From the NCBI GenBank assembly GCA_038065255.1, contig JBBTRI010000010.1:1-57761 (forward strand): a stretch of 57,761 bases of DNA, given 5' to 3'. Below, piece after piece: positions 2,614 to 19,162 of the stretch (position 1 is its first letter; each line of letters starts with the position of its first letter). The position numbers were made by a program, and so were the translations under genes. The notes under the pieces are model-generated. The model was not told the origin of the DNA. It was given only the letters and a program-made list of their open reading frames with translations, and searched no databases. The stretch comes from Patescibacteria group bacterium (GTDB lineage: Bacteria > Patescibacteriota > Patescibacteriia > JACQRZ01).

Positions 2614-4017
2614 ATGAAAAAGAAACAAGATAAACAACCTGAAGCAGCGCCTGCTGTGCAACCTGTACAATCTGCAAAACCAGGCATTGAAACCGTGAAG
2701 CAGGTAAGAGCTCCGCAGCTTGTGAAGGGTATGAAAGATATTCTTCCTGTTGACCAGCCGTATTGGATGCATATTAAAGCATTGATTGGTCGCATGATGG
2801 ATGACTATAGCTTTGGCCGGATCGATATGCCGATTGTTGAAGATACGTCGCTGTTTTTGCATGGGCTTGGCAAGCAAACAGATATCGTGGAAAAAGAAAT
2901 GTATACATTTGTGGATCAGGGAGGGAACAACTTGTCTCTCCGTCCGGAATTGACTGCAAGTTTTGTGCGTTCCTATCTGGAGCATGGCATGCTCACATGG
3001 CCGCAGCCGGTGAAGCTCTATGCGGTTGGACCTGCTTATAGGCACGACAAGCCCCAAGAAGGGCGCTATCGGCAATTCTATCAGTGGAGCTGTGAAGTCA
3101 TCGGCGAGGCAAAGGCTGCCGCAGATGCACAGCTCATTCTTATAGCGTATAAATTCTATACATCACTGGGTCTTTCACCGATCATGCATATTAACAGTAT
3201 CGGTTGCCAGGTATGCCGGCCAGCGTATCGCGAGGCGCTGACAGAATATTACAAAAACAAACGCAGCCAGATTTGCGAAGATTGCAAGAGAAGGCTTACC
3301 AGGAATGTTATGCGACTCCTTGATTGCAAGGAGCAAACCTGCCAGGAGATCAAAGCAAAAAGTCCTCACATGGATGAATACCGCTGCGATGATTGCAAAA
3401 ACCATTTCATGTCGGTGCTTGAATATGTGGATGACTTTGATATACCCTATGAATATAACCACTATTTGGTGCGCGGACTAGATTATTATTCTCGAACAGT
3501 CTTTGAGTTTTATATTCCGCGGGGAGACGATGAGGAAATGAATATGCTTGCCATTGGCGGCGGCGGGAGATATGATCAGCTTGTTGAATTGTTCGGCGGG
3601 ATGCCTACGCCGGCGGTTGGGTTTGCGGTTGGTATAGAGCGAGTGATCTTAAAACTGAAAGAAATGCAGACGGCGGGAGAAGAGATCCCCATTGTCCAAC
3701 AGCGAAAAATTGATATATTTATTGCACAGCTTGGCGAGCGTGCAAAGCGCAGAATGATGGTATTATATGAAGAGTTGCTCAAAGAAGGCTTTGCTATGGC
3801 GGAAGCATTTACCAAGGATAGTTTGAGGGCGCAGCTTGATTTGGCAAATAAACTTGGTGTGAAATTTACGGTTATTTTGGGTGAAAAAGAATTGATCGAC
3901 GGAACGATTATTATCAGAAATATGGAAGGTGGCGAACAGGAAGTGATAGATAGTACCAAGCTTATACCGACCTTGCGCAAAAAGCTCGATGCATGGTCGC
4001 AGAAAACAACATCGTGA
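2614..4017 (+). CDS. hisS: histidine--tRNA ligase
   Basis: Contains KGMKDILP, LRPELTA, YRHDKPQEGRYRQFYQ (motif 2), GGGGRYD (motif 3) and a C-terminal anticodon-binding domain. The track ORF starts at TTG 2584, and the first ATG at 2614 lies 2 nt after the lepB stop. Confidence 0.93.
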   Translation: MKKKQDKQPEAAPAVQPVQSAKPGIETVKQVRAPQLVKGMKDILPVDQPYWMHIKALIGRMMDDYSFGRIDMPIVEDTSLFLHGLGKQTDIVEKEMYTFVDQGGNNLSLRPELTASFVRSYLEHGMLTWPQPVKLYAVGPAYRHDKPQEGRYRQFYQWSCEVIGEAKAAADAQLILIAYKFYTSLGLSPIMHINSIGCQVCRPAYREALTEYYKNKRSQICEDCKRRLTRNVMRLLDCKEQTCQEIKAKSPHMDEYRCDDCKNHFMSVLEYVDDFDIPYEYNHYLVRGLDYYSRTVFEFYIPRGDDEEMNMLAIGGGGRYDQLVELFGGMPTPAVGFAVGIERVILKLKEMQTAGEEIPIVQQRKIDIFIAQLGERAKRRMMVLYEELLKEGFAMAEAFTKDSLRAQLDLANKLGVKFTVILGEKELIDGTIIIRNMEGGEQEVIDSTKLIPTLRKKLDAWSQKTTS

Positions 4018-4057
4018 TTATATTAATTCATAACGGTTGAAAAGGGGTGAACACACC

Positions 4058-4312
4058 ATGCCAGAAATAAAACGAAAAACAAAAGAGTCGTTTGAGTCGG
4101 CATTGCGAAGATTCAACAAGCAGGTTCAGCAGAGCGGAAAATTGCTATCTGTTCGAAAATTGCGGTTCTTTACGCGTTCCAAGAACAGGCGAGCAAAGAA
4201 AGAAACTGCGCTGCGTAGAATGAAGATCGAGCAGAAGAAAAACTATCTCCGCAAAGTAGGCAAGCTCAAAGACGTCTTTCCGGGTGTCAAGGCTGTCATG
4301 AGATTGCAATAG
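4058..4312 (+). CDS. rpsU: 30S ribosomal protein S21
   Basis: ESFESALRRFNKQVQQSGKLLSVRKLRFFTRSKNRRAKK is S21-like. ATG 4058 is preceded by the SD-like AAAGGGGTGA. The track ORF begins at the upstream TTG 4037. Confidence 0.9.
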   Translation: MPEIKRKTKESFESALRRFNKQVQQSGKLLSVRKLRFFTRSKNRRAKKETALRRMKIEQKKNYLRKVGKLKDVFPGVKAVMRLQ

Positions 4313-4337
4313 CATTCGTTAATAACATTTCAGCGCC

Positions 4338-5939
4338 ATGATTTGGAGGAGGAACAGTTTCATAGGGGCAGCTGTAGGTGTGGCACTCATAGTGCCAAGT
4401 GTTGTGTTTGCCGCAAACGGATTCGGAGCTTTTATAGGTGTACAGGGAGATGATGTACGCCTTATTGTGCTACGCGTGTTTCAGATATTTTGGATACTCG
4501 TCGGTATTGCATGCGCAGCGCTGGGCGGATACGGCATTTATTTGTACAGGTCAGCATCAGGAGATGAAGAAGAGCTGCATCAGGGCAAACGCTTCATGTT
4601 GATAGGCGCCATTGGTGTTGTAGTCGTGATTGCACTTTCTATTATATTGGCGCAGATCTATGGAAGCATGGCTAAAAAAACCGCCAGTCAGGTCGTGGGT
4701 ACCGAAGTTGAATTCCCTTCGCAATTTTTTAGCGAAATGCTTGGCGCAGGAGGAAGGGTTGCAGAGCATTTTCCTACGCGAGATGCCAAAAATATTCCTC
4801 GGAATGCCCGTATTATTATTACATTTAAGGAATCCATTCGTATTGAGAGCGTTAGAGATGACGCAAAGAAACTAAAAACAGATGTTATTCGCATTCAACA
4901 AGTGTTTCCGCAAGTGACTGGCGTCATGGTGAATGCGGCGGGAGCTGTAGAAACAAATAGCGATCATACTGTTCTTACTATTGCTCCTGAAGCGCTATTC
5001 GGCGAGAAGAACAAAAAGTCTACCTATGCCGTTACGCTAACGAATGCACTACAGAATGAAAAAGGAGAAAAAATATTTTCTACAAACAGCGGCTACTCAT
5101 GGCAATTTGAAGTCAGCGGACTTGTGGATAATACCCCTCCTCAGTTGGAATCTGCGCAGCCCCTGCCCCAAGCCTCTGGTATGCAGCAGCAGATTCGCTA
5201 TCCCTACAATCACCTCATTCAGATGACATTTACCAAACCTATTGACCCATTAAGCATTACCGGCGACAAAATAGAAGTGATCAATGATGATTTGAGTACG
5301 AAAGTGCTCGGTAGTGTCACTGTTGGCAATGGATTTCGTACTGTGACATTTTTGCCGAAAACATCATGCGGGAAAAACGCATGCAGTGAGACAATCTTCT
5401 GCTTGCCACAAAAAAATAGGCTTCATGTAACGGCAAAAGCTGCCTCTCTGCCAAAGACAAGAAGTTCCGAGAGTCCGAATCGCGCAGTTTTTCCGTATGA
5501 TGGCATCGTTGATGTGATGGGTAACTCTCTTGATGGTGGCGGAGTTAATGCAGCACAGAAGAATGGGAAATCAGACGGTCCTCCGACAGATTCAGTGACC
5601 TACTCGTTTGCTACATCAGACCAATTTGCAAGTACCCCACCTCAAGTGACCTACATCATGCCGAAGCGGGATGGCACCAAGGTAGACCTCACTCAACCTA
5701 TTCAGGCTGATTTCTCATCGTTTATGGATCTTACGTCACTTCACAGCAGTACCTTTATGTTGAGTAAGGAATTAAACTATTGGATTGTAAGCACTAATGA
5801 TAGTGCAAACAAAAAAACCACTTCACAGATTTTGCATGACACACTGAAGCCAAATACAATCTATAAACCGGAAATTCAATCAGCAGTAAAAGATATTACT
5901 CAGCAATGTTTTAATCCATGTATTGGCCCGACGCCATAA
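4338..5939 (+). CDS. membrane-anchored surface protein: N-terminal TrbC/VirB2-like (T4SS-pilin-like) two-helix module fused to about three Big_5/SbsA-type Ig-like domains
   Basis: The signal-like N-terminus (AAVGVALIVPSVVFA) is followed by two hydrophobic helices flanking GGYGIYLYRSASGDEEELHQGKRF, which matches pilin-like topology. Three segments then follow the Big_5 style (IIITFKESIRIESV...VLTIAPE...YAVTL; IQMTFTKPIDPLSI...TVTFLP; IQADFSSFMDLTSL). It ends 10 nt before the giant ORF. Confidence 0.6.
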   Translation: MIWRRNSFIGAAVGVALIVPSVVFAANGFGAFIGVQGDDVRLIVLRVFQIFWILVGIACAALGGYGIYLYRSASGDEEELHQGKRFMLIGAIGVVVVIALSIILAQIYGSMAKKTASQVVGTEVEFPSQFFSEMLGAGGRVAEHFPTRDAKNIPRNARIIITFKESIRIESVRDDAKKLKTDVIRIQQVFPQVTGVMVNAAGAVETNSDHTVLTIAPEALFGEKNKKSTYAVTLTNALQNEKGEKIFSTNSGYSWQFEVSGLVDNTPPQLESAQPLPQASGMQQQIRYPYNHLIQMTFTKPIDPLSITGDKIEVINDDLSTKVLGSVTVGNGFRTVTFLPKTSCGKNACSETIFCLPQKNRLHVTAKAASLPKTRSSESPNRAVFPYDGIVDVMGNSLDGGGVNAAQKNGKSDGPPTDSVTYSFATSDQFASTPPQVTYIMPKRDGTKVDLTQPIQADFSSFMDLTSLHSSTFMLSKELNYWIVSTNDSANKKTTSQILHDTLKPNTIYKPEIQSAVKDITQQCFNPCIGPTP

Positions 5940-5949
5940 TACTATTGCC

Positions 5950-8900
5950 ATGCGCACTTTCCATCCACATTTGAAACCGTTTTTTATAGGGCTCTGCATG
6001 AGTGCCTGTGTTGCGTTGGGCGGGATATCATTTGTGTTGGCGCAAGCGACATTGCCAATCATTCCTGATAAGCCGGATCGGCAGCTGGCACCAAAACAAG
6101 CGGAACAGCCTCTTAGCACAGCACAGGGTGAAGCAATGAAAATTGACCGTGTCTTTCCACAGAGCGGTCCGCCCAACCAATTTGTCAGCATTGAGGGCAG
6201 CGGATTTGGCCCAGTGGCCGGTACGGTAGTTTTTGATCAGAACGGCCGTGCAGTGCAGGCTGAGACAAAAAGTTTTCCGCTCGAGTGCCAAGGCCTTTGG
6301 TGGAGGAATACGACTATTATTGTCAAAGTGCCACAGCTCGAAGCAGGCACGTACATGATAAAACTCAAGCGACAGGATGGATCTATTAGCAACCAAATCC
6401 GTTTTGTAGTCAATCAAGGAACTCCGACGCCGGGTATCTGCGGATTATTGCCCGATAACGGCCCCGCCGGTGTTCCGGTCAGAATATTTGGATCTGGTTT
6501 TGGCAGAGATGCAGGAAAAGTGGTTCTTGGCAGTGTGGATTTGCAAATCGAAGATCAGGGGTGGAATGATTCAATTATTAGGGCGCAGACATCTTTGACC
6601 GATTCTCTATCGGGAAAAATCCGCGTTATTACTGCAGACAAAACGTTGAGCAATCCGATTTCATTCTCTTTTGCTCGATGTTCTCCAGGATCCTGTGGCA
6701 CGGGAAATGCATGCTGTGCAGACGGTTCATGTCGTCCGGATGGGCGCTGCGAAGATAGGCCGCCTCTCTGTACGTATTCGTGGGCGTTTTATACAGGTGA
6801 TCTTGCCGGTACCGGCGAACCGTGTTCATCTAATGAACAATGTTTGTCAGGAATTTGTACGAATGGCATATGCGCACAGGGAATAAAGGGAGAAGGCGCG
6901 CGATGCACATTTGATGCCGAATGCCAGAAGGGATTGAAATGCGAGAATGGCATGTGCAAATCTATTTTGAAAAAAAATGGCGACAAATGCACCAGCAGTT
7001 CAGAATGTTTCAGTGGGAAATGCGAAAATGGAATATGTAAAAATGGTGACAAAAAAGTTGGTGAGCAATGCAAGTACGATCAAGAGTGTGCTAGCGGTAA
7101 TTGCTATAACGGAAAATGTGCTCAGGCGCGCATATGCCCCAAAGTGTTGAAATCAGAACCTACCGGCAAACTGGCATATAAAAATTCAGTTTTCAGTTTG
7201 TTATTCAATCAGTTAATGGATGAAGCCTCGGTACGTGCTGCACTTTTGTTTAGACCCGAAACAAAGGGCTCAATTCTAGTTAAAGTTATTGGAACGGGAT
7301 TGGAAGCAAAAACACAGGCGGAATATAGGCCGGATGCATCATTAAAATCAAATGAAGCTTACACATTTGTTGCTGGGCCGGATGCACGTTCTGCATCCAG
7401 TCCGGATACGATTGCAAAATGTGCTGCAACAGGTGGGAATGCATGCAGTGGCACGGGTTCGATTTGTGACAAAAAAGGTTCGCTCTGCGAAGGTGGTGCG
7501 TCATGTTCCGGTAATTCATCCACATGTCGCGGCGTTGGTACGGTATGTAGCGGCAAAGGATCAAAATGTCTGGAAGGAGCCACATGCACTGGCACCGGTT
7601 CCACATGTTTAGATAAAGGAAGCTCGTGTACCAATGAAGGCTCGGTATGTCGTAAGCAGGCTGGCTGTTCCGGTCTCAATGCCCAATGCGGCGGATCAGG
7701 GGTGCTGTGTACCGGGAATGGTTCGATATGTAAGGATGGAGCAGTGTGTAAAGGTACGCCACCTATTGTAAAGGAAGAAAAGTGTGAAACTTCAGGACAG
7801 AAATGCAGTGCTCAGGGAGCTCAGTGCACTAATGGATCAACATGTAGCGGTGTTATCTCTCGCTGTACCGGAATAGGAGCAGCATGTGAAGGAAATAGTT
7901 CAACGTGCCTCAATGGAGCGGTTTGTGATGGCAGTAATTCTACCTGCAGCGGAGTTGGAACCCTGTGTACTGGAAGCGAAAGCAAATGCGTGAATGGCGC
8001 TCGTTGTACCGGAGTTGATCCTGTATGTCAGGGAGCAGCAAGTGAATGTACCGGCGATGGAAGCGTATGCAGTGCCGGCGCTACGTGCAATGTGTTGCCG
8101 CCAGATATTGCATGCGGTGCAAATGGTACATGTCCGGGTGGACTGGTGTGTAATCCTGCTACGCAAAAATGTATCGATCCACCGACGTGCGGACTAGGCG
8201 GCAAATGTCCCGAAGGGTTGAAATGTAATTCCGATAATAAATGCTACCCTGCATGCGGCGCAAACGGCGCATGCCCGGGTGGACTGGTGTGTAATCCAAA
8301 AACGCTAGCATGCACTCCGCCTCCATCATGTGAAAATGGCAAATGTCCAAATGGATTGCAGTGTAACAAGGAGGATAATAAATGCTACCCTGCATGCGCA
8401 GCAAAGGGTGCTTGTCCTGCTGGGTTATCATGTAATGGATCAAATCTCTGTGGGTTGCCCCCGACGTGTGGGCCAAACGGAACCTGTCCGAATGGAGGCG
8501 TTTGTAGTAAAACAGATAATCGTTGTTATCCCGAATGCGGAGCAAACGGCACATGTCCGGGAGGGTTAGTATGTAATCCCAATACAAAAGGCTGTGAGCC
8601 AATCATTCAATGCGGTATTGGCGGTTCCTGTCCGGCAGGATATGAGTGTGAAAAAAGCTCAAATCAATGCAAGCCTATTATTCCTTGCGGTCCCGGCGGC
8701 TCCTGCCCAGGAGGAAAAGTATGCGTACCCGGCACAAATACCTGTATTGAACCTCCTGTATGCGGTGAGGGTGGAAAATGTCCCGATGGCTTAGAATGTA
8801 ATCCCGCAACACAGCATTGTTACCCTCCATGCGGCCCTGGAGGAAGCTGTCCAAGCGGTCTTGCATGTAAGCCTGGAGGCACTACTTGCGAAGTAGTAAC

Positions 8901-11900
8901 ACCAATTATCCCCCCCGGTCCCATTGCCTGCAATCCCGATGGATCCTGCCCTCTCGGAACAAAGAAAGATCCTCTGGCTTCATCATGTAAGTGTTTACCG
9001 GATTGCAGCGCCGGACAGAAATGCCCTGCCGGCAGCGCATGCGATAGCGTCAGTGGCGTATGTCGCGTGTCCTGTCCTCCGGATTCCAACTGCCGTTCCG
9101 ACGAACGCTGTGTTGAAAATATGTGTAGACCCATTCCCACCGGCCCCCATTGCGGTGATGGAACCATCCAGCTTGAACGTGGCGAGGAGTGTGATAACGG
9201 TTCATCGAACAATTCATCAGGAAACATCTGTACAGGTTCCTGCAAGCTCATTGCCTGTGGTCCCAAGGGTGAATGTCCCGGAGGATCCAAATGCAGTGCT
9301 GACGGCAAATGCCACCCTGTTTGCGAAAATGATAGCGATTGCAAATCTCCGCTTATATGCGATCCCACAGAAAAGGTGTGTAAACCACCCATCATAACCG
9401 TCTGTTCTCAAAAGAAATCCTGTGAACCCTCTGACGACTGCAAACTCTGCGAACCTCTCTGTACATCCGCCAACAGATGTAAGATTGTGAATCCTCCGGA
9501 CTGTGCATCGCGTAATTTATTCTCATGCCAAAAAACCGATGGTACCATTGAATGTGCTAAGCCATGCCCATCAAACGACGTAGGTGTTTGCAGTGCCGGT
9601 ACCGGCTGTTCACTCACCGATGACTGTAAACTCTGTCCTAAGTGCGCAACAGCTTCACGATGCAGCACCCCACCACCTGATTGCAAAGCTTTGGGCAAAT
9701 ACGAATGCCAGAAAAAAGATGGTAGCAAATTCTGTAGTGATGCTACCTGCGAAGAAATCCCCCCCGGTCCCATTGCCTGCAATCCCGATGGATCCTGTCC
9801 TCTCGGAACCAAGAAAGATCCTCTTGCTTCAGCATGCACCTGTCTTCCGGTCTGTGCTTCCAATACCGATTGCCCTGCCAACCAGAAATGCGATCTTGCT
9901 GCCGGCGTATGTCGCGTGTCCTGTCCTCCGGATTCCAACTGTCGTTCAGATGAACGCTGTGTTGAAAATATGTGTAAGCCCATTCCCACCGGCCCACGCT
10001 GTGGTGATGGAACCATCCAGCTTGAACGTGGCGAGGAGTGTGATAACGGTTCATCGAACAATTCATCAGGAAACATCTGTACAGGTTCCTGCAAGCTCAT
10101 TGCCTGTGGTCCCAAGGGTGAATGTCCCGGAGGATCCAAATGCAGTGCTGACGGCAAATGCCACCCTGTTTGCGAAAATGATAGCGATTGCAAATCTCCG
10201 CTTATATGCGATCCCACAGAAAAGGTGTGTAAACCACCCATCATAACCGTCTGTTCTCAAAAGAAATCCTGTGAACCCTCTGACGACTGCAAACTCTGCG
10301 AACCTCTCTGTACATCCGCCAACAGATGTAAGATTGTGAATCCTCCGGACTGTGCATCGCGTAATTTATTCTCATGCCAAAAAACCGATGGTACCATTGA
10401 ATGTGCTAAGCCATGCCCATCAAACGACGTAGGTGTTTGCAGTGCCGGTACCGGCTGTTCACTCACCGATGACTGTAAACTCTGTCCTAAGTGCGCAACA
10501 GCTTCACGATGCAGCACCCCACCACCTGATTGCAAAGCTTTGGGCAAATACGAATGCCAGAAAAAAGATGGTAGCAAATTCTGTAGTGATGCTACCTGCG
10601 AAGAGTTGCCACCGGATGATGAGGAGCAATCATGTGGTCCCAATGGACAATGTCCGGCTGGAACAACCTGTAATCCAGGTACAAATACATGCCAAGCGCC
10701 GGGTGGGCCTCAAGCACCATCCAGCCTCATACTTGCAGTCCGCTCATCTTCACAAATTGATCTTACATGGAGTGATAATTCTTCTAACGAGCGTGCATTC
10801 TTAATCTATCGCTCACTTGATAAGGGCGCTTCCTATTCACTCAGAGCAGCAGTAGCTGCACAATCAGAACAGTTGGCCGCCTATGCAGACACGGGTCTTG
10901 ATGCTCGAACAGAATATACCTATAAAATTATTGCCATAAATGCATATGGTGATTCTGATCCATCGAATGTGCAGTCGGAAACAACATCATGGCTTCCCTG
11001 CCTCATATTTTGTCCAACACCCGCTATTCCTACGGGACTTGATATGCGAGCGCTTAATGCTTCGACAATTAAAATTATTTGGAACCATGATGATAAAAAT
11101 GTTACTGCATTCAAAGTGGAGCGCACTATAAATCCCAATGATCCCGATTCATATATCACGGCATGCTCGGTAACCAATACCCAGAAGTGGTGTAATGACG
11201 GTGAGCTTAGTCCGAATACTACCTACTGGTATCGAGTCCAAGCATTGAATGGTTCGAAATTTTCTGCTCCATCCGAAGCTAAGTCCATAAAGACGCTTGG
11301 CGGCAGTGGCGGGCTTCCACCACTTGCACCCACGCAACTCACAGCGGTGGGGGATACACCATCTCAAATAACTCTTCAATGGCAGCATACAGGCGCTGAT
11401 GAGCTTGGATTTAATGTGTATAGAACAAAGAATCTCACCCAACCTTTTGAGTTTGTGAAGCGCGCCGGCAGAGATGAGCTTATATTTATCGACACAGAAA
11501 AAGAAACAAATGTGCAATCCAATTCTGATTATTGGTATCGTGTTGCCGCATTCAATGATTATGGAGAAACATTTGCCGCTGGGGATCCTGCAAAGGCCCA
11601 CACACCACTTTTTGGATGTATATTCTTTTGTAAAACACCAGTTGCTCCAACGGAAGTGAAAGCAACAAAGATTGATTCTCAAACGATCTCTTTGAGTTGG
11701 CAGCATACCGGCGCAGATCTTACCGCATTCCGTATTGAAAAAACATCAGATAGCGGCGCAACAAAAATATATCATTTTGTCACGACCGTTGGCAAAAACG
11801 AGCGCACTCATCGTGATGCAGGCTTATTGCCAGCGACGTATTCATATCGAATTACAGCATTAAATGATACACGAGAATCATCATCTGTTCTTTCAGGAGA

Positions 11901-14900
11901 TACAAGCATTACTACGGTAACTCCTCCGCAGCCAGGACAATGCGTGCCCACACAAATTGCCGGTGCGGGATTGCGCGGTATTTACTATGCTGCTGAGCAT
12001 AAGGATCCTCCATCCCAGGTGCCTGCAGGCAGCCCGCTTATCGACCGCATTGATAGCAAAATAAATTTTGACTGGAGAAATGTTCCCAATGACCCGACTG
12101 TTCCGCCGGGTTGGTACCTGGTTCGCTGGACCGGTGGCATTCGCGTGCCACAGAACGGCGAATATACATTTCATACGCGAAGTGATGACGGCATTATTGT
12201 TTCCATAGATAATAAACTTATTATAAATAATTGGACGGGACACGGCATTACAAGCGATAAAGGAAAAGTTACTCTTGAAAAAGAAGTGCTCTATCCGATA
12301 TCAATGACCTATTATGAAAATGGAGGATATGGATGGATGCAACTTTTCTGGTCAGGACCGGGTGTTGCTGTGGAAGAAATTGTGCCCACAGAGTATCTCT
12401 ATACCGATCAAGGAGCGCCAATCACTACCTGTGTGAGTCCGGACTCCGTACGTCCCTATCTTGATTCGGTATCTGTTTTGATTGATGATGCAGACAAATC
12501 CACTTCATTAAATGATCAGTTTAATTGTACTGCCGGAAAGACATGTCCAATCGGCTCAAAATCACTCCACACGTATTCACTGAAGGTATTTGGACGTGAT
12601 GCACGAAGTGGTGGATTAAGCGAAATTGTGCCATCCGGAGGAATACAATGGGGATATCCTACCGGTTCAAGCGCCATAGTCTCACTATCTCAAACTACCC
12701 CAGCTAAACCCACAAGTCGACAGATTTCTGCACTTGCCAATGGTACAGAAACTATTAGCATTCGTGTCTCTGATGTTGATGAAAATGGATACGCGAAAGT
12801 AGTTGAAAAGCAAGTTGCTGTAACGGTGTCCGCATCCACAGATTCAGGCGGAGGCGGTGGAGGAGGAGGAGGCGGCGGTACGGTGAGTGGAACATGCGCA
12901 CAGCCCCTGCGAATGGCGCTTATCGGATTTCATAGCAATACCCATCCGACCTATGATTGGATTAGACAGGCCTATCCTTCCGTTGTGGGTGTAATTGATA
13001 CGTTGAGCGATGCATCCATGCTCGCAGAAGATAATTATGATATCTATATAGTAGATAGAGCTTGGTGGAGCGCAGATTCGTATAATTCAAAACTATATAG
13101 CCTTTGGAATGATCGTGGTAAAAACGTTATTTCAATAGGAAATGATTCAACAAGCGCGTTGGATCCTATCGGTACCTATGTTGGGACTGGCGGCGCGCAG
13201 TATAATTTGGCATCAAAGCCACGCGAAGCCCATGAAGTAATGAACTCATCATTTCAGGCCTACGATCAAATTGGTGCTGTTACGGACGGGTATGCAACTG
13301 CTATTCTGACAGCAAAAAATGGCTTCACTTCTCTCTATGAGCGTGTGAGCAAGCCTGCCGGTCAAACCCATCACATGGGTCTTATTGGAAAAAATGCCAT
13401 TGGGGGTATTTGGTTCCACGATAATACAGGGGGATTATTTAATAATGATCAAGGGAAAAATGTTCTCACATCAGTTCTTGATTATATGACGAAGGATAGG
13501 CCAAGTAGAAGTGCACAGACGGCAGCCTTCAAGGAGACCTATAGCAAGCAGGTTGATCCTGCCTGTGCTCTTGGTGGCAATCTCCCTCTGGAATCAATAA
13601 CTGTGTCCGTTGATGGCGCGGCACTAGATGATCTACACCTGAGTGATCAGTTTAATTGTTCCGAAAGCTATCCATGCCCTGCAGGGGCTACGCCTTCTCA
13701 TACCTATTCAGTAACAGCATTTGGTATCGATGCGGCAGGCACAAAACAAGAGATTATACCTGATCAGGTTACCTGGTCGCTTGGCACGCCAGCATCCACA
13801 TCTATTGTGCTTAGCGGAGTTTCTGAAAACACTTCAAATAGTCAGGCAGTTGTTACGGCAAAGGCTCTCCAGGGTGGAAATTCAATTGCTGTAACAGTAC
13901 AGGGCAAAGACACTGCCGGAAATGCAACCACACTTACGAAAACCGTTACCATGAGTGTCTGTCCCCATCCATGGAGCTATGTAAATGCCGACTATGATTT
14001 TTCAATGTACTACTGTAGGGATATTGACAACACGAGCATGCTGCCCCTTCTCTCAAACCCTCCCCGTATTCGTACGGCAGTCCAGGGATTTATAGGCACA
14101 GCATTCAGTAGAGAATACATTTTCCCCTTTGTTCTTGATGCACAGAATAATCCTGATCCCAATCAAACAGATGTTATTATTATGCGCGTTGGAGATAATC
14201 CCAAGCGTCAACTTCTCAATGATTGGTACAAGGAGCGCGTGCCATTTGGATCTCCTTCTCCCATTGCACAAATTGATGGGTTTGACACCCTTCAGGATGA
14301 ATCCGGCATCTATGTTATGGCGCCAAGCACAAATGGAACTACTCCCGAACTGCGCATCTATTTCTTTGCGGTGAATAAGGGCGCAGACCCTTCTACAACA
14401 CAGCTGTTTACCAGAATGCTTTCGTGGACGAAATTCGCTTCTTCGATACCATCAGATGAAGATGGCAAAAAACTCCGCATGGATATGACTCGGTATGCGC
14501 GGTTACGATCTATTCAGAAACAGCTTGAACAGTATCGGAGGGTATCAAGCTATCCGTGCAAGTCAAACCCATCGACAACATGCTACTATCCAAATCTTGA
14601 TTCAGGAAGTTATATTTCGCATGAGAGCATTTCAATTTGGCCATCATGGAAGCAAACACTCAGTAATAATCTTGGTACAGCATTGCCGGTAGATCCTCTT
14701 CAGGAACAGGATCCGCAACCACTTGAATATCAATGCTCATTGCCGTTTAACAAGAACACCTGTTGGTATACTGAAGAAAAATGCGGTGAAAAGGGGAAGT
14801 GTTCAGAATCAGACCTCCATTGTGAAACAGCAACAAATTCATGCTTTCCGTATTTTAACGGCTCATGTGAGCATAATGCAAAAAATGAAAATGGATATTG

Positions 14901-15168
14901 CAAACCTCAATCTACGCCGTTTCAGTTGGGAACGACGGTATATAATGCCATAGAAAAAGAGAAGCATGTATTCACATACAAATCACTGAATGGTGGGCAG
15001 AACTATCAACTCTGCGGACTCTTCGATAAACCGCGCCTCATCAGAACATTTTACGGATTGGCAATTAATGATGCAAAGCCAATTTGTTTCGAGCAAGAAC
15101 CAAATCTTTCCCTTCTTGACCGTGGCATGCTACTCTTAAGAAAGATATCATCTCTTTTTCCACAATAA
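5950..15168 (+). CDS. giant (about 3,070 aa) secreted Cys-rich mosaic surface protein, putative adhesin
   Basis: A single 9.2-kb ORF. The track start at 5923 is TTG, and ATG 5950 gives a signal-like MRTFHPHLKPFFIGLCMSACVALGGISFVLAQA. Approximate domain positions are 2x IPT/TIG (6135-6672), four C-x6-C-x4-C-x4-C knots (6823-7119) and Big_5 (about 7140-7400). They continue with a Cys-heptad array (7420-8091), 4-Cys repeats (8113-8907) and units containing CGDGxxxxxEECDNG, the Myxococcus-type Cys-rich repeat (8908-10605). The C-terminal half has 4x FN3 (10718-11915), PA14 (11962-12405, with GLRGIYY...WTGGIRVPQNGEYTF...YENGG), Ig-like modules, a Gly11 tract and unassigned C-terminal domains. Confidence 0.85.
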   Translation: MRTFHPHLKPFFIGLCMSACVALGGISFVLAQATLPIIPDKPDRQLAPKQAEQPLSTAQGEAMKIDRVFPQSGPPNQFVSIEGSGFGPVAGTVVFDQNGRAVQAETKSFPLECQGLWWRNTTIIVKVPQLEAGTYMIKLKRQDGSISNQIRFVVNQGTPTPGICGLLPDNGPAGVPVRIFGSGFGRDAGKVVLGSVDLQIEDQGWNDSIIRAQTSLTDSLSGKIRVITADKTLSNPISFSFARCSPGSCGTGNACCADGSCRPDGRCEDRPPLCTYSWAFYTGDLAGTGEPCSSNEQCLSGICTNGICAQGIKGEGARCTFDAECQKGLKCENGMCKSILKKNGDKCTSSSECFSGKCENGICKNGDKKVGEQCKYDQECASGNCYNGKCAQARICPKVLKSEPTGKLAYKNSVFSLLFNQLMDEASVRAALLFRPETKGSILVKVIGTGLEAKTQAEYRPDASLKSNEAYTFVAGPDARSASSPDTIAKCAATGGNACSGTGSICDKKGSLCEGGASCSGNSSTCRGVGTVCSGKGSKCLEGATCTGTGSTCLDKGSSCTNEGSVCRKQAGCSGLNAQCGGSGVLCTGNGSICKDGAVCKGTPPIVKEEKCETSGQKCSAQGAQCTNGSTCSGVISRCTGIGAACEGNSSTCLNGAVCDGSNSTCSGVGTLCTGSESKCVNGARCTGVDPVCQGAASECTGDGSVCSAGATCNVLPPDIACGANGTCPGGLVCNPATQKCIDPPTCGLGGKCPEGLKCNSDNKCYPACGANGACPGGLVCNPKTLACTPPPSCENGKCPNGLQCNKEDNKCYPACAAKGACPAGLSCNGSNLCGLPPTCGPNGTCPNGGVCSKTDNRCYPECGANGTCPGGLVCNPNTKGCEPIIQCGIGGSCPAGYECEKSSNQCKPIIPCGPGGSCPGGKVCVPGTNTCIEPPVCGEGGKCPDGLECNPATQHCYPPCGPGGSCPSGLACKPGGTTCEVVTPIIPPGPIACNPDGSCPLGTKKDPLASSCKCLPDCSAGQKCPAGSACDSVSGVCRVSCPPDSNCRSDERCVENMCRPIPTGPHCGDGTIQLERGEECDNGSSNNSSGNICTGSCKLIACGPKGECPGGSKCSADGKCHPVCENDSDCKSPLICDPTEKVCKPPIITVCSQKKSCEPSDDCKLCEPLCTSANRCKIVNPPDCASRNLFSCQKTDGTIECAKPCPSNDVGVCSAGTGCSLTDDCKLCPKCATASRCSTPPPDCKALGKYECQKKDGSKFCSDATCEEIPPGPIACNPDGSCPLGTKKDPLASACTCLPVCASNTDCPANQKCDLAAGVCRVSCPPDSNCRSDERCVENMCKPIPTGPRCGDGTIQLERGEECDNGSSNNSSGNICTGSCKLIACGPKGECPGGSKCSADGKCHPVCENDSDCKSPLICDPTEKVCKPPIITVCSQKKSCEPSDDCKLCEPLCTSANRCKIVNPPDCASRNLFSCQKTDGTIECAKPCPSNDVGVCSAGTGCSLTDDCKLCPKCATASRCSTPPPDCKALGKYECQKKDGSKFCSDATCEELPPDDEEQSCGPNGQCPAGTTCNPGTNTCQAPGGPQAPSSLILAVRSSSQIDLTWSDNSSNERAFLIYRSLDKGASYSLRAAVAAQSEQLAAYADTGLDARTEYTYKIIAINAYGDSDPSNVQSETTSWLPCLIFCPTPAIPTGLDMRALNASTIKIIWNHDDKNVTAFKVERTINPNDPDSYITACSVTNTQKWCNDGELSPNTTYWYRVQALNGSKFSAPSEAKSIKTLGGSGGLPPLAPTQLTAVGDTPSQITLQWQHTGADELGFNVYRTKNLTQPFEFVKRAGRDELIFIDTEKETNVQSNSDYWYRVAAFNDYGETFAAGDPAKAHTPLFGCIFFCKTPVAPTEVKATKIDSQTISLSWQHTGADLTAFRIEKTSDSGATKIYHFVTTVGKNERTHRDAGLLPATYSYRITALNDTRESSSVLSGDTSITTVTPPQPGQCVPTQIAGAGLRGIYYAAEHKDPPSQVPAGSPLIDRIDSKINFDWRNVPNDPTVPPGWYLVRWTGGIRVPQNGEYTFHTRSDDGIIVSIDNKLIINNWTGHGITSDKGKVTLEKEVLYPISMTYYENGGYGWMQLFWSGPGVAVEEIVPTEYLYTDQGAPITTCVSPDSVRPYLDSVSVLIDDADKSTSLNDQFNCTAGKTCPIGSKSLHTYSLKVFGRDARSGGLSEIVPSGGIQWGYPTGSSAIVSLSQTTPAKPTSRQISALANGTETISIRVSDVDENGYAKVVEKQVAVTVSASTDSGGGGGGGGGGGTVSGTCAQPLRMALIGFHSNTHPTYDWIRQAYPSVVGVIDTLSDASMLAEDNYDIYIVDRAWWSADSYNSKLYSLWNDRGKNVISIGNDSTSALDPIGTYVGTGGAQYNLASKPREAHEVMNSSFQAYDQIGAVTDGYATAILTAKNGFTSLYERVSKPAGQTHHMGLIGKNAIGGIWFHDNTGGLFNNDQGKNVLTSVLDYMTKDRPSRSAQTAAFKETYSKQVDPACALGGNLPLESITVSVDGAALDDLHLSDQFNCSESYPCPAGATPSHTYSVTAFGIDAAGTKQEIIPDQVTWSLGTPASTSIVLSGVSENTSNSQAVVTAKALQGGNSIAVTVQGKDTAGNATTLTKTVTMSVCPHPWSYVNADYDFSMYYCRDIDNTSMLPLLSNPPRIRTAVQGFIGTAFSREYIFPFVLDAQNNPDPNQTDVIIMRVGDNPKRQLLNDWYKERVPFGSPSPIAQIDGFDTLQDESGIYVMAPSTNGTTPELRIYFFAVNKGADPSTTQLFTRMLSWTKFASSIPSDEDGKKLRMDMTRYARLRSIQKQLEQYRRVSSYPCKSNPSTTCYYPNLDSGSYISHESISIWPSWKQTLSNNLGTALPVDPLQEQDPQPLEYQCSLPFNKNTCWYTEEKCGEKGKCSESDLHCETATNSCFPYFNGSCEHNAKNENGYCKPQSTPFQLGTTVYNAIEKEKHVFTYKSLNGGQNYQLCGLFDKPRLIRTFYGLAINDAKPICFEQEPNLSLLDRGMLLLRKISSLFPQ
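7420..8091 (+). repeat. coding Cys-heptad array (C-x-G-x-G-S-x) with a 27-residue super-period
   Basis: About 33 Cys residues are spaced 7,7,7,6 repeatedly (for example CSGNSST CRGVGTV CSGKGSK CLEGAT). The array forms two blocks split by the linker CKGTPPIVKEEKC. Confidence 0.85.
8113..8907 (+). repeat. coding array of 11 units of 22-25 aa, CG-x-x-G-x-CP-x-G-L-x-CN-x5-C
   Basis: Units include CGANGTCPGGLVCNPATQKCIDPPT, CGLGGKCPEGLKCNSDNKCYPA and CGANGACPGGLVCNPKTLACTPPPS. Some units are also similar at nucleotide level (8113-8156 versus 8253-8296). Confidence 0.85.
8908..10605 (+). repeat. 2 x 849-bp in-frame tandem duplication inside the giant ORF
   Basis: Unit 1 is 8908-9756 and unit 2 is 9757-10605. 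Aligned by eye, 9154-9755 is identical to 10003-10604 (602 nt), while the first ~245 nt of each unit are diverged. The identical antisense track ORFs 9217..9411 and 10066..10260 confirm the 849-nt offset. Confidence 0.95.
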
Positions 15169-15198
15169 GATCATTTATCAAATTCATAATTTTTAGAT

Positions 15199-15978
15199 AT
15201 GTTCGACGAACAAACACAACCGCAAGCGACACCGCCGATACCACAATCTTCAAAGCAAGAGCCACAGGATATTTTTAGCGAGGTACCGGGATTACAAGCA
15301 TCTTCCAGTCAGCCACAGATTCCAGGACAGGTTGCCGGCATGCAGCAATCCTATCCTCAAGAACCACATTCGGGATTTAATCCAAAACTTATTCTTATTG
15401 TCGTTGCGATACTTGCCGTATTGGTCGTTGCCGCATTTGGCGTTCAGTTTGCATTGCGAAGTAAGCAAACATCTCAGCAGCAGCCAGTTGCCGTGCAGCA
15501 GGCACCGGTTCAACCTCCAGTACAAGAGGTCTCCGAGCCCCAAACTCCACCACCAGGGCTTATTCAGGATAATCAACAACCTATACCTCCCACACCTCCG
15601 GATCAGCTAGCAGTACCATCTGCCCTACCAACCACGCCTACTCCGGGTGAGGCACTAGTACCACTCACGCAATCCGCCACCGATACTGACGGTGATGGAT
15701 TGCTCGATGACGAGGAGCTGCAGCTTGGTACAGATCCTGCAAAGTCAGATAGCGATAGTGATGGCTTAGCAGACGGGCAAGAAGTAAAAACATATAAAAC
15801 AAATCCAGTGGTTGCCGATAGTGATTCTGATGGTCTCGATGATTCAAAGGAATTAACAGTGTATAAATCTGATCCGCTTAATCCAGATACGGATGGAGAT
15901 GGTTATCTTGATGGTTCAGAAGTTAGCAATGGATATAGTCCGCTTGGTCCAGGTGCCTTGACAGCACCAATGCAGTAA
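15199..15978 (+). CDS. single-pass membrane protein with four thrombospondin type-3-like Ca-binding repeats
   Basis: P/Q-rich N-terminus, then a TM segment (LILIVVAILAVLVVAAFGVQFAL) and a P/Q-rich linker. These are followed by DTDGDGLLDDEE, DSDSDGLADGQE, DSDSDGLDDSKE and DTDGDGYLDGSE. Confidence 0.8.
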   Translation: MFDEQTQPQATPPIPQSSKQEPQDIFSEVPGLQASSSQPQIPGQVAGMQQSYPQEPHSGFNPKLILIVVAILAVLVVAAFGVQFALRSKQTSQQQPVAVQQAPVQPPVQEVSEPQTPPPGLIQDNQQPIPPTPPDQLAVPSALPTTPTPGEALVPLTQSATDTDGDGLLDDEELQLGTDPAKSDSDSDGLADGQEVKTYKTNPVVADSDSDGLDDSKELTVYKSDPLNPDTDGDGYLDGSEVSNGYSPLGPGALTAPMQ

Positions 15979-16021
15979 CTCCCACTATTTTGAAATGTAA
16001 GAATACGTTCCTATTCCCTGT

Positions 16022-17086
16022 ATGTTTGAATTTATTGAAGAAGACTTATCTCTTCAACAACAAGATCAATCTGAAAAAAAAGATGCCGGCATTCAGCCGC
16101 CTCCTTCTGGCGAGCTTGCAGTTACGGTGATGCCGGAGCGTTTTCGTCCTGTTATAAAAAAGAAACAGAAAGGCAGTTTTCTGATGATCATTGTTGTTGT
16201 ATTGTTTGTTGTTATTGCACTTTCCTCTATTGTTGTACTATATCTCTTGAGTCAACCTCAGAAAGTGCAGCCACCGCAGCCAATTCAGGAACAATCTAAA
16301 CAAGAGGAATCAAAAACCGCTGAGGAGCTACCAAGCGAGCAGCCAGCAGAGCAGTCGGCTACGAGTACTCCATCTACAACTGAACAGCCAATCCAAGCAC
16401 AATCTGGCTCGCCAATTACCTCAGAAGGACAGCAGCAAGCACAGCAACAGCAAAAACCCGTAGCGTCCATATCGCCAACTACCGCACTTACACAGGGCAC
16501 AGACACCGATGGCGATGGTCTCACCGATGCCGAAGAACGTCTCTATGGTACGTCTATTGATACGCCAGACACCGATGGGGATGGTTTTTTTGACGGTGAA
16601 GAATTAAAAAAGCTTTTTGACCCTACAAAACCCTCAGCTCGACTAGATTCATCTTCATTGGCCTATACCTACACCAATCAGACGTTTAAATATAGGGTAC
16701 TCTACCCATCATCTTGGGCAGCAAAAGCAATTAATACAACAGAACGAGAAGCAATTTTTACCTCAGCAACCGGCGAATTTATGTCATTAAAAGTTGAGGA
16801 CAATCCTCAAGCACTTTCCCCGCTTGATTGGTATGTCACTGTGAAGGATCAGGGAATTAATCCTGCCCAACTCCAAACAATTACCGGTGACACGTGGATG
16901 GGCGTAACAAGTAGTGATAGTCGCAGTATTTACTTTGTTCGGCGTTCGGAAAAATCAGCGGTTAGCGCGCCACTCATGTATGCACTTACCTATAACCTTA
17001 ATGCAAAAAATGAAGTGAATTTTCTTGCTACGTTCCAGATGATGATTCAAAGCTTCACATTTACCGACCTTACGTTTGTAAAATAG
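16022..17086 (+). CDS. single-pass membrane protein with two TSP3-like repeats and an unassigned C-terminal globular domain
   Basis: TM segment (FLMIIVVVLFVVIALSSIVVLYLL), a Q/P/E/S-rich linker, then DTDGDGLTDAEE and DTDGDGFFDGEE. A C-terminal domain of about 150 aa has no family I recognise. Confidence 0.8.
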   Translation: MFEFIEEDLSLQQQDQSEKKDAGIQPPPSGELAVTVMPERFRPVIKKKQKGSFLMIIVVVLFVVIALSSIVVLYLLSQPQKVQPPQPIQEQSKQEESKTAEELPSEQPAEQSATSTPSTTEQPIQAQSGSPITSEGQQQAQQQQKPVASISPTTALTQGTDTDGDGLTDAEERLYGTSIDTPDTDGDGFFDGEELKKLFDPTKPSARLDSSSLAYTYTNQTFKYRVLYPSSWAAKAINTTEREAIFTSATGEFMSLKVEDNPQALSPLDWYVTVKDQGINPAQLQTITGDTWMGVTSSDSRSIYFVRRSEKSAVSAPLMYALTYNLNAKNEVNFLATFQMMIQSFTFTDLTFVK

Positions 17087-17090: not shown

Positions 17091-17516
17091 ATGGTAAGTC
17101 TTACAGTAGCTCTTGAAAAAAAAGGAATACCTCCTCTTGCGCTCAAGTCTAGTTGGTATCAGCGACTTGCAAACTTGACAAGAAAAGCAGGGTATACACT
17201 TCCTATAGTATTAAGCATTGCTCTTGTTGATGATCCTACAATACGGCGAATTAATAAACAGACACGACGAGTAGATAGAGTAACAGACGTGCTTTCATTT
17301 TCGTATGGCTTGGATGAGGGAGAGTTGATTATTGCCCCAAATCAGGCGCGACGGCAATATGCATCATTTAAAAGCAAATCATTAAAAGATGAACTTAAAA
17401 GACTTGTAATTCACGGATATTTGCATTTGGCCGGTCTTGACCATAAAAAGTTGGCAGAGCGAAGAATAATGGAACAGGTGACGCGCACTCTCCTTTTGGC
17501 AGCAAAAAAGATATGA
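17091..17516 (+). CDS. ybeY: rRNA maturation endoribonuclease YbeY
   Basis: Contains the HGYLHLAGLDH metal-binding motif (H-x3-H-x5-H) and is a typical 141 aa long. Confidence 0.9.
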   Translation: MVSLTVALEKKGIPPLALKSSWYQRLANLTRKAGYTLPIVLSIALVDDPTIRRINKQTRRVDRVTDVLSFSYGLDEGELIIAPNQARRQYASFKSKSLKDELKRLVIHGYLHLAGLDHKKLAERRIMEQVTRTLLLAAKKI

Positions 17517-17875
17517 AAAAATGGCTTAGAAGCGCACGATATGCCTTGAGCGGTATCGTATTAGCATTGCGTGAGGAACGGAATATGCGCATTCAATGCA
17601 TTGCTGCACTTATGGCTGTTGTATTATCAATAATTCTTAAGGTTTCACTGACTGAACTCTCGATTGTGCTTATTGCCTCAGCTCTCGTTATTTGTATCGA
17701 GTCTCTAAATAGTGCAGTTGAACGCTTATGTGATATGGTTAAACCACGAATTGCATTACAGCTACAAGCTATAAAAGACTTGCTCTCGGGAGCAGTACTA
17801 TTAGCATCATGTGCGGCACTGGGGGTTGGAATCCTAATGTTTGTTCCAAAAATTGTATCATTGATTGTTCAATGA
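17513..17875 (+). CDS. dgkA: diacylglycerol/undecaprenol kinase family protein
   Basis: 120 aa with three TM segments. Contains REERNMRIQ and ESLNSAVERLCD motifs. It overlaps ybeY by 4 nt (ATGA), the usual ybeY-dgkA linkage. Confidence 0.85.
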   Translation: MKKWLRSARYALSGIVLALREERNMRIQCIAALMAVVLSIILKVSLTELSIVLIASALVICIESLNSAVERLCDMVKPRIALQLQAIKDLLSGAVLLASCAALGVGILMFVPKIVSLIVQ

Positions 17876-17911
17876 TTGCATATCAGAGTACTTTTTTGAT
17901 ACACTAGTAGT

Positions 17912-19162
17912 ATGAAAGACACAATATTAACAGGATTAGACATTGGATCAACAACAATACGTATTGTTGTTGGTCAGATGTATTCTGAAGGCGGCGAGCG
18001 AAGGATTCAGCTTATTGGAGCAGCAGAAAGTGAAACAGAGGGTATTACTCGCGGTTCAATCACAGACATTGATGATGCTGCACAGTCGATTATTACCTGT
18101 CTGGAAAAAGCAGAACGAATGACGGGTGTGCCTATAGATTCTGCGTGGGTTGGCATGAGTAGCGCTCATATCGTATCTCAAATTAGCCGTGGGATAGTCG
18201 CTGTTGGAAAGGTAAATGGTGAAATCGGAAAACAAGATGTAGAACGTGCAATAGAAGCTGCCCGAGCCATTGCAACTCCCGCTAACTATGAGATTTTGCA
18301 TGTTATACCCCGTAAATCAACTATTGATGGCCAAATGACCATTAAAGACCCAATCGGTATGACCGGTACGAGGCTTGAAGTTGATACTATGATTATTCAG
18401 GCATTTGCGTCTGAAGTAAGAAATATTACAAAGTGTATTTATAAAACAGGTTTAGAAATTGAAGACCTCGTTTTTTCTATACTTGCTACAGCTGAAAGTA
18501 CATTGACCAATAAGCAGAAGGAACTCGGCGTTGTACTTATGAATATTGGCGGTTCAACAACATCCCTCGTTGTGTACGAGGAGGGAGAGATCTTACATAC
18601 TGCTGTTTTGCCTGTTGGTTCAAATCATATTACTGCAGATATTGCGATCGGCCTTCGCATTTCACCCGATATTGCAGAGAAAATTAAAATCGAATATGGT
18701 AGTGTTGCGCAAAAAGATCAGCAAAAGCGCCCCGATATTCAATTGTCTGATATTCATCCTGAGGAGCAGGGGACAATTCCCATGAAGTACGTTTCTCATA
18801 TTATTGAAGCGCGTGTTGAAGAAATATTCGAAAAAGTTGAAGAAGAACTAAAAAAGATTGGAAGAGACGGGGTATTGCCTGCAGGTGTTGTATTAACAGG
18901 TGGAGGAGCAAAACTTCCGGGAATTGCGGATCTGGCAAAGCGCCGCCTCAAAATTGCGGCATCACTTGCAACATTAAAAAACGTAAACAATCCAATCGAA
19001 AAAATATACGACCAAAGTTTTACTACTGCAGTTGGGTTGGTGCTCTGGGGGTTCACATTGGCGCAACAACGATCAAAACATGCGCATTTTCCTTTTCAAA
19101 TGGATCAATCAATCGACATTTCAAACCGAGTAAAAAAATGGTTCAAGTCACTCTTGCCATAA
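17912..19162 (+). CDS. ftsA: cell division protein FtsA
   Basis: Actin-fold motifs GLDIGSTTIRIVVG, MNIGGSTTSLVV and VLTGGGAKLPG. It lies immediately upstream of ftsZ. Confidence 0.93.
   Translation: MKDTILTGLDIGSTTIRIVVGQMYSEGGERRIQLIGAAESETEGITRGSITDIDDAAQSIITCLEKAERMTGVPIDSAWVGMSSAHIVSQISRGIVAVGKVNGEIGKQDVERAIEAARAIATPANYEILHVIPRKSTIDGQMTIKDPIGMTGTRLEVDTMIIQAFASEVRNITKCIYKTGLEIEDLVFSILATAESTLTNKQKELGVVLMNIGGSTTSLVVYEEGEILHTAVLPVGSNHITADIAIGLRISPDIAEKIKIEYGSVAQKDQQKRPDIQLSDIHPEEQGTIPMKYVSHIIEARVEEIFEKVEEELKKIGRDGVLPAGVVLTGGGAKLPGIADLAKRRLKIAASLATLKNVNNPIEKIYDQSFTTAVGLVLWGFTLAQQRSKHAHFPFQMDQSIDISNRVKKWFKSLLP

Follow-up and report, generated by a model that had tools for sequence, protein, structure and literature searches.

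A conserved cluster of four predicted envelope-protein genes between rpsU and ybeY in Uhrbacteria-type Patescibacteria: a candidate surface assembly

A large share of bacterial diversity belongs to the Patescibacteria, for which a life attached to other cells is assumed, and to our knowledge the contact molecules of groundwater lineages outside the Saccharibacteria are essentially unknown. The question raised here is whether four consecutive genes, P1 to P4, of the Patescibacteria contig JBBTRI010000010.1 (57,761 nt, analysed whole and called the window below) encode parts of such a contact apparatus, as a first-pass annotation made from the sequence had proposed. The four products are all predicted to be envelope proteins, and their genes recur at a fixed chromosomal position in relatives. 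On balance we think it probable that Uhrbacteria-type (ABY1-like) Patescibacteria build one conserved, chromosomally fixed surface assembly with P1-P4 as its subunits, and that a fibre or adhesin complex is its likeliest form.

The four genes lie on the + strand with intergenic gaps of 10, 30 and 43 nt and occupy 12,749 of the 57,761 nt (22% of the window); the arrangement, its share of the window and the flanking rpsU and ybeY genes were all found as first described. The rpsU stop is 25 nt from the P1 start and the P4 end is 4 nt from the ybeY start, and two alternative starts are available for P2 (TTG 5923 and ATG 5998). Because of the single strand and the 4-43 nt gaps, one transcription unit fits P1-P4, and we infer that they are co-transcribed.

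Relatives were scanned with an 18-sequence P1 alignment using one genome per species. A P1 relative was found in 156 genomes and 80 loci were fetched, numbered here with an L. In nearly all 80 loci tblastn gave the order S26 signal peptidase, histidyl-tRNA synthetase (HisRS), ribosomal protein S21 (sometimes with YqeY next), P1 and P2. The order lepB-hisS-rpsU-P1-P2-P3-P4-ybeY-dgkA-ftsA-ftsZ recurs in Uhrbacteria-type Patescibacteria, in about 80 species genomes, which bears out the synteny of the four genes. A P3-like gene lies 3' of the giant P2 gene in the 16 loci where one was detected, and a P4-like gene followed by ybeY-dgkA-ftsA-ftsZ was seen wherever the sequence extends that far. The downstream order ybeY, dgkA, ftsA, ftsZ matches the window in L010, L025 and L034, while ybeY follows P4 in L005, L017 and L028. 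Two proteins selected solely for the C-terminal module of P2 both proved to lie in this locus type (L087, with ybeY and dgkA after the thrombospondin type 3 (TSP3) genes, and L088, with ftsA and ftsZ there). In a few loci (e.g. L039 and L044), no P3-like gene was detected within the 2-3 kb visible past the module-bearing open reading frame (ORF). The locus sits inside rpsU-yqeY...ybeY-dgkA, which we take to be an ancient block of Firmicutes-like gene order. A mobile element or horizontally acquired island was rejected on the fixed position among housekeeping genes in all relatives, and this position together with near-universal retention favours a core role over an accessory, horizontally mobile one.

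The giant P2 ORF also holds up, as far as it could be checked. The window forms the first 57.8 kb of a 330-kb contig of the metagenome-assembled genome (MAG) GCA_964365725.1, and its sequence has been assembled independently from Hainich groundwater. An independent ENA contig is colinear with the window over nt 1466-11237 at 99.9% identity and crosses an 849-nt tandem duplication in P2, the one feature that looked suspicious. A Logan contig, the third assembly, stops at 8937 where the duplication starts, as short-read assemblers do at repeats. In addition, a 57%-identical relative (P0072) matches the C-terminal 620 aa of P2 without a break, and the orthologous genes exceed 3,300 codons in most relatives. 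An assembly chimera is thus ruled out by the independent assembly for nt 1466-11237, and is unlikely for the C-terminus given P0072 and the longer orthologues.

Constant and variable parts of the four proteins

P1 carries a signal peptide, a two-helix hairpin and three Big_5 domains (Pfam E 1.2e-23, 84.3 bits against a cut-off of 23.6). Its aa 43-103 match the type IV secretion system (T4SS) family T4SS_pilin (PF18895) with E 5.9e-5 and 23.5 bits, slightly under the 26.6-bit Pfam cut-off, and aa 38-110 give a weak NCBIfam match to the Mbov_0395 pilin-like conjugal transfer protein. The AlphaFold2 (AF2) model of P1, with a predicted local distance difference test score (pLDDT) of 86, has helices at aa 40-72 and 77-113 (pLDDT ~80-90) with the loop GGYGIYLYRSASGDEE between them, followed by three beta-sandwich domains; in Foldseek it comes closest to two S-layer proteins, SbsC and Sap, and to Ig domains from L,D-transpeptidases. 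Nearly all of the 71 P1 homologues are annotated with PF18895 and PF13205 (Big_5), two of them also with PF04956 (TrbC/VirB2), and their named sources are Uhrbacteria, Falkowbacteria or Parcubacteria MAGs. At the family level, this homology identifies the N-terminal module of P1 as a genuine hairpin of the VirB2/TrbC type.

The signal peptide and the two hydrophobic helices with a short polar loop, found in both the sequence and the AF2 model, are those of VirB2/TrbC proteins. These are small hairpin-only proteins (mature ~70-120 aa), whereas P1 has 533 aa with an Ig-like ectodomain of ~400 aa. No virB4, virB6, virB3 or other T4SS genes were found in the window, nor were T4SS genes among the called genes flanking L004-L006 and L087-L089, and the 80-locus tblastn map shows housekeeping neighbours upstream. 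A canonical T4SS locus was rejected because T4SS genes are absent nearby. Of the pilin-like module described for P1 at the outset, the hairpin homology holds at the family level, but P1 is no canonical T4SS pilin. P1 fits VirB2 in fold and homology but not in size and genomic context, and is described as 'VirB2-like hairpin-anchored' and not as a 'T4SS pilin'.

This hairpin is not confined to P1. By a hidden Markov model (HMM) of the family's hairpin, 70 of the 82 loci also have it at the N-terminal end of the giant P2, and in some loci an additional small hairpin gene is present, with two or three hairpin genes in tandem. Independently of this model, the P2 orthologues of L028, L031 and L032 match T4SS_pilin above the Pfam cut-off. 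Only in the window's clade (P1 identity at least ~36%) is the hairpin on P2 replaced by a plain signal peptide, and by this comparison the clade has lost it. The second gene of L005 matches P1 in tblastn over its N-terminal ~250 aa, suggesting that P1 and P2 are paralogous at their N-termini.

P2 itself has a signal peptide (aa 1-33) and 225 Cys (7.3%). Pfam matches were found for TIG (31.4 bits against 20.9), four fn3 domains (8e-24, 84.1 bits against 25), PA14 (6e-23, 81.6 bits against 24) and, weakly, Big_5, with no match to the RTX family HemolysinCabind. With P1, P3 and P4 included, every domain named in the first-pass annotation was present (Big_5, TIG, four fn3, PA14 and TSP3), the pilin match being sub-threshold. 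The copies of the tandem duplication (849 nt, 283 aa) share 94% nucleotide identity; their 3' ~600 nt are identical, and of the codon changes between their 5' ~250 nt 16 are non-synonymous and 12 synonymous, which suggests a recent or gene-converted duplication with divergence limited to one sub-module. Tandem Repeats Finder found no short-period tandem arrays.

Across the related loci, only aa ~60-285 and aa ~2580-3030 of P2 are conserved, and the 2,300-aa middle differs even in the nearest clade. The first of these segments (aa 60-285), which holds the TIG pair, is kept in ~74 related loci by tblastn, whereas conservation of the disulfide-rich region, with its weak Dickkopf_N/EB matches, is limited to a few close relatives. 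No fn3 or PA14 match (E<=0.001) was found in seven P2 orthologues (L005, second gene only, L009, L010, L025, L028, L031 and L032); FN3-like matches occur in L011 and faint fn3 matches in L087/L088. The middle of the L009 orthologue contains five DUF4215 and two N_BRCA1_IG domains with no FN3 or PA14, other orthologues have Big_7, Big_5, DUF4215 or TSP_3 there, and in some lineages P2 is split in two genes, the second of which begins with the C-terminal module. Judged from these orthologues, the block of FN3 and PA14 domains is a lineage-specific decoration and not the system core. PDB and Pfam searches with aa 2150-2545 and with the 283-aa duplicated unit returned nothing significant, and their best match, to an amidase (E 0.0046), was considered spurious.

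Neither Pfam nor NCBIfam gave a match for the last ~750 aa of P2, in agreement with the ~700 C-terminal residues initially reported as lacking a recognised motif. They do contain a module of ~360 aa (aa 2670-3030), conserved in ~55 loci by tblastn, that belongs to no Pfam family and has no sequence match in the PDB. By an exhaustive HMMER search it is present in 1,052 representative proteins, with E<=1e-10 for 752, and lies either deep within proteins of 1,500-3,800 aa or straight after a signal peptide. A word-index homologue search with the P2 C-terminus, alone or as a 31-sequence profile, returned one protein each. The AF2 model of the module (pLDDT 78, core >90) has an alpha/beta core whose nearest structures in Foldseek, all weak, are BT_1490 (3hlz, 3.5e-3), cyanobacterial PsbP (2xb3, 5.1e-3), Mog1 (1eq6, 7.7e-3) and SciW, with probabilities of 0.87-0.97 and TM-scores of 0.2-0.4. 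The core is followed by a 30-residue helix and the strongly conserved sequence RDxxRLxDLxxIxxxLExY...G.YP.L.SGSY...WPSW...LG..LP.DP.N., and the module ends in a Cys-rich stretch.

The segment after the core shows a likeness, no more than suggestive, to the alpha1-C and head motifs found in type IV pilins and in GspG. Weak T2SSG matches occur in 6 of the 24 module members (Pfam, best E 0.0031), and hhalign gives 75% against type IV pilins of the candidate phyla radiation (CPR) from related loci, over 24 helix columns only. No pilin was found in the Foldseek top 50 or in the PDB profile search. The helix (aa 2836-2865) is preceded by no G/FTLIE prepilin cleavage motif, which the real pilins of the related loci do have, and the module lacks a hydrophobic alpha1-N.

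The core of this module is shared with P4. The C-terminal ~150 aa of P4 align with the PsbP-like core of P2 in hhalign at 98% (E 2.6e-13, 105 columns), and the homology of the two domains is solid on this profile evidence. The top PDB sequence match of the P4 profile was again PsbP (2xb3), at a non-significant E of 0.4.

P3 and P4 have the same general layout, with four TSP3_bac repeats in P3 (66.1 bits against a cut-off of 25) and two in P4 (29.9 against 25), and are paralogues by this comparison. Their N-terminal motifs were compared in L005, L010, L013, L017, L023, L025, L028 and L034. The MFDD..EDIF and GYNPxGxG motifs are conserved in the eight aligned P3 orthologues, and (V/Y)xMPEKF is conserved at the N-terminus of P4 orthologues, distant relatives included; no further MPEKF-type motif was found in the window. 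P4 also gave weak NCBIfam matches to ftsN (2.8e-4) and RodZ (5e-4). Membership of the FtsN, RodZ, CglD and MtsD families was rejected, as the matches are repeat-driven or compositional and far under the cut-offs. A third TSP3_bac protein of the window (37089-37928, +) has its repeats fused to a YkuD L,D-transpeptidase domain, and it seems that this organism uses TSP3 repeats as an envelope spacer in general.

The hairpin on P2 in most relatives, the conserved P2 module, its domain shared with P4 and the lineage-specificity of FN3 and PA14 were all absent from the first-pass annotation. None of the outcomes it had named as contrary, namely an ordinary signal anchor in P1, lack of synteny in relatives or a chimeric giant ORF, was found.

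The proposed surface assembly and its rivals

In the assembly that we favour, P1 and P2 would be exported by the Sec pathway and cleaved by signal peptidase I, whose gene lies two genes upstream. P1 would be held in the membrane through its VirB2-like hairpin (N-out, cytoplasmic loop, C-out) and display the three Big_5 domains. P2 would be the long exposed element, docked to the conserved partners through the TIG pair and the PsbP-like/helix module, and its 2,300-aa middle, here made of Cys-rich repeats, four FN3 domains and PA14, would be swapped among lineages to give binding specificity. P3 and P4 would be paralogous N-in/C-out single-pass proteins whose Ca-binding TSP3 stalks cross the wall. 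Most relatives would anchor P2 by its hairpin, and in the window's clade, where the hairpin was lost, P2 would be held non-covalently. The PsbP-like domain at the end of P4 recurs in the P2 module, which suggests a P2-P4 pairing or a common ligand, and the two paralogous pairs (the P1/P2 N-termini and P3/P4) together with this one shared domain suggest a hetero-oligomeric assembly. The four products would thus associate physically, and Ca would stiffen the stalks.

An adhesive or attachment function is suggested by the domain types and by the variability of the P2 middle; Ig, FN3, PA14, TIG and TSP3 folds recur in adhesins and S-layer proteins that have been characterised, as partly reflected in the Foldseek matches. 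Several points weigh against this assembly. Adhesion is deduced from domain types alone, the subunit interactions are hypothetical, and the PsbP-like assignment of the P2 module comes from weak Foldseek matches (E 3-8e-3) to a moderately confident model. A promoter and terminator scan of the locus gave the same counts as shuffled sequence and was uninformative. Finally, a structural or housekeeping role in the envelope would be just as compatible with the setting among lepB, hisS, rpsU, ybeY and ftsAZ and with the near-universal retention. The locus is established as far as a conserved envelope-protein operon, and the attachment reading beyond it is plausible.

A structural or division-linked role is a serious rival, and one that we regard as unlikely. 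P1 and P2 would then form an S-layer-like coat, wall spacer or division scaffold, and P3 and P4 would be FtsN/RodZ-like bitopic linkers to the cytoplasm or divisome. This would agree with the housekeeping block directly upstream of ybeY-dgkA-ftsA-ftsZ in which the locus is kept in all relatives seen, with the S-layer and L,D-transpeptidase Ig structures nearest to P1, with the conserved cytoplasmic N-terminal motifs of both P3 and P4, and with the TSP3 repeats on the L,D-transpeptidase of the window. However, the exchange of 2,300 aa of domains between close lineages is unexpected for a coat protein, P2 is much larger and Cys-richer than typical S-layer proteins, and PA14 is a ligand-binding fold. 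The layout of P4 is of the FtsN/RodZ type, but its matches to these families lie far under the cut-offs and are probably compositional. The homology of the hairpin to T4SS pilins raises a different rival, in which the hairpins of P1, and mostly also of P2, polymerise into a true VirB2-type pilus extruded by a T4SS encoded elsewhere, with the Ig domains on the shaft and P2 as a tip or side adhesin. Both termini of the F-pilus pilin are at the pilus surface, and a C-terminal ectodomain is therefore sterically possible. The two or three consecutive hairpin genes of some loci are like the VirB2 arrays documented in Patescibacteria, where VirB2-like pilins and pilin arrays usually lie near virB4, and T4SS genes are reported to be widespread in Patescibacteria including ABY1 (PMC12102498). 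However, the T4SS loci of ABY1 adjoin comF, recG and radA instead (PMC12102498), and VirB4, VirB6 and VirB3 genes are missing from the window and from within 10 kb in the 80 loci, as far as the called flanks of L004-L006 and L087-L089 and the tblastn map show. An ectodomain of 400 aa or 3,000 aa on each subunit would be unprecedented for VirB2 filaments, and in the window P1 is under the Pfam cut-off and P2 has no hairpin. We consider such a pilus improbable.

A link to type IV pili appears more improbable still. On this reading P2 would be a giant pilus-associated adhesin, whose module would insert in or cap a pilus through its pseudopilin-like helix and LPxDP segment. The weak T2SSG matches point in this direction, as does the alpha1-C motif, over which hhalign gives a likeness to type IV pilins of the CPR, yet that likeness covers 24 columns, the module has neither the hydrophobic alpha1-N nor the cleavage motif, structure and profile searches returned no pilin, and no type IV pilus genes were found near the locus in the window. 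Three N_methyl type IV pilin genes lie ~3 kb downstream of dgkA in L087 (18241-20050), a linkage noted in this one locus, and count in its favour. As a bolder version of the fibre, we regard it as a long shot that the hairpins of P1, P2 and sometimes a third small pilin co-polymerise into a novel filament core, with no T4SS or with one elsewhere. This core would display the Ig ectodomains and the variable giant adhesin, and P3 and P4 would form a Ca-stiffened base coupled to the cytoplasm through their MFDD..EDIF and MPEKF tails.

Features of the locus and of the window

The coordinates of the features are collected in Table 1.

Table 1. Features of the P1-P4 locus and its flanks (nt positions in the window; aa positions in the respective protein)
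Feature	Position (nt)	Strand	Details and basis
P1	4338-5939	+	ORF, 533 aa
P1 signal peptide			aa 1-25
P1 two-helix hairpin	4455-4676		aa 40-113
P1 three Big_5 domains			aa ~140-533
P2	5950-15168	+	ORF, 3,072 aa counted from ATG
P2 TIG/IPT pair	6136-6700	+	aa ~63-250; Pfam TIG aa 64-152
P2 disulfide-rich repeat region	6676-10704	+	aa 243-1585; repeat families D2, D4; Big_5-like aa 398-482
P2 tandem duplication	8908-10605	+	849 nt (283 aa)
P2 four fn3 and one PA14	10717-12396	+	aa 1590-2149; Pfam fn3 x4, PA14/GLEYA
P2 C-terminal module	13957-15039	+	aa 2670-3030; tblastn conservation
PsbP/Mog1-like alpha/beta domain of P2 module	~14101-14445	+	AF2/Foldseek
Long helix with pseudopilin-like motif and WPSW...LPxDP segment of P2 module	~14431-14775	+
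P3	15199-15978	+	ORF, 259 aa
P3 cytoplasmic motif region	15199-15290		N-terminus, MFDE...QDIF
P3 other parts			transmembrane aa ~62-85; P/Q-rich stalk; TSP3_bac x4; C-terminal GYSPLGPG
P4	16022-17086	+	ORF, 354 aa
P4 cytoplasmic motif region	16022-16150		N-terminus with VMPERF
P4 other parts			transmembrane aa ~53-76; P/Q-rich stalk; TSP3_bac x2; C-terminal domain
P4 C-terminal domain	16616-17083	+	aa ~199-354; homologous to P2 module core
Signal peptidase I (S26), histidyl-tRNA synthetase, S21	1947-4312	+	upstream neighbours; Pfam
Ribosomal protein S21 (rpsU)	4037-4312		upstream flank; Pfam
YbeY	17091-17516		downstream flank; Pfam
ybeY, dgkA, ftsA, ftsZ	17091-20443	+	downstream neighbours; Pfam

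A few further observations were made elsewhere in the window. An RNase P RNA (RF00010, 44785-45385, -) matches model positions 1-367 but is 601 nt long, and compared with the bacterial class A consensus it has ~230 nt inserted. Between uppS and cysS (24268-28332, +), a 762-aa DUF4012 membrane protein and a 587-aa DUF11/NPCBM-associated protein form a probable envelope pair. A tRNA-Pro (23423-23496) overlaps the listed GTG start (23397) of the uppS ORF, whose true start must therefore be further downstream; the Pfam match starts at aa 50. The stretch 30000-32200 has a GC content of 0.50 against a background of ~0.42 and includes a 415-aa ORF (30911-32158, -) with no Pfam match, and may be foreign DNA. 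On the - strand at 49887-51748, a probable mreC-like ORF comes after an MreB-like gene (50678-51748), an assignment made from the N-terminal sequence only; this pair suggests that the elongation cytoskeleton is kept alongside FtsA/FtsZ in this ultra-small bacterium.

Comparison with known systems

We found no description of hairpin-anchored giant proteins or of the rpsU-ybeY locus in open-access papers and preprints. The cluster offers a testable candidate surface apparatus for CPR bacteria outside the Saccharibacteria, with four genes at a fixed position in at least ~80 species-level genomes. The constant (putative docking) and variable (putative specificity) parts of its giant protein are now distinguished, and the P2-type module, which lies outside Pfam, occurs in more than 750 protein clusters. 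Among freshwater-specific structure clusters, PF18895 is reported to be the Pfam domain that dominates (bioRxiv 10.1101/2025.04.23.650224). This 'T4SS pilin' domain of freshwater Patescibacteria is not always part of a T4SS, and in very large surface proteins it acts as an N-terminal anchor; counts of PF18895 in metagenomic surveys should be read as T4SS components with caution.

The anchor itself shares with VirB2/TrbC pilins and PF18895 arrays a signal peptide, two hydrophobic helices with a short charged loop, family-level homology and, in some loci, a tandem arrangement of two or three genes. In contrast to these arrays, the hairpin here makes up the N-terminal ~110 aa of much longer proteins (500 to >3,300 aa) that bear large ectodomains, and the genes hold a fixed position between rpsU and ybeY and not beside virB4, virB6 or virB3. 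The repeats of P3 and P4 are the DxDxDGxxDxxE Ca-binding type known from surface or adhesion proteins such as Myxococcus CglD and MtsD. They are the source of the partial NCBIfam matches, all of which score far under the family cut-offs (44.8 bits against 400). P3 and P4 themselves are small and bitopic, and contain neither VWA nor any other CglD domain. Similarly, the PsbP/Mog1/DUF1795 fold (SciW, BT_1490, MTC28) is the top match of the P2 module core at probabilities of 0.87-0.97, but with E values of only ~3e-3 to 8e-3 and low TM-scores, and with no functional tie to photosystem II or to the chaperones of type VI secretion systems.

The closest parallels to P2 are found among the giant adhesins, both RTX (MpIBP, SiiE, FrhA) and Gram-positive Ig-repeat types. 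P2 shares with them the Ig-like/FN3 spacers combined with ligand-binding modules (PA14), the Ca dependence, and a ligand-binding part that varies between lineages while the ends are conserved. An RTX adhesin of a type I secretion system (T1SS) was rejected for P2, as there is no RTX match, no ABC, membrane fusion protein or TolC genes lie nearby, and P2 has an N-terminal Sec signal peptide. Unlike the giant adhesins, P2 has no RTX repeats, LPXTG/sortase signal or T1SS, is very Cys-rich, has its own conserved C-terminal module and is apparently anchored by a VirB2-like hairpin or by partner proteins. What is new within giant surface-protein loci is that an unusual VirB2-like anchor is combined with a putative docking module, unnamed but widespread, and with a chromosomal address that is fixed.

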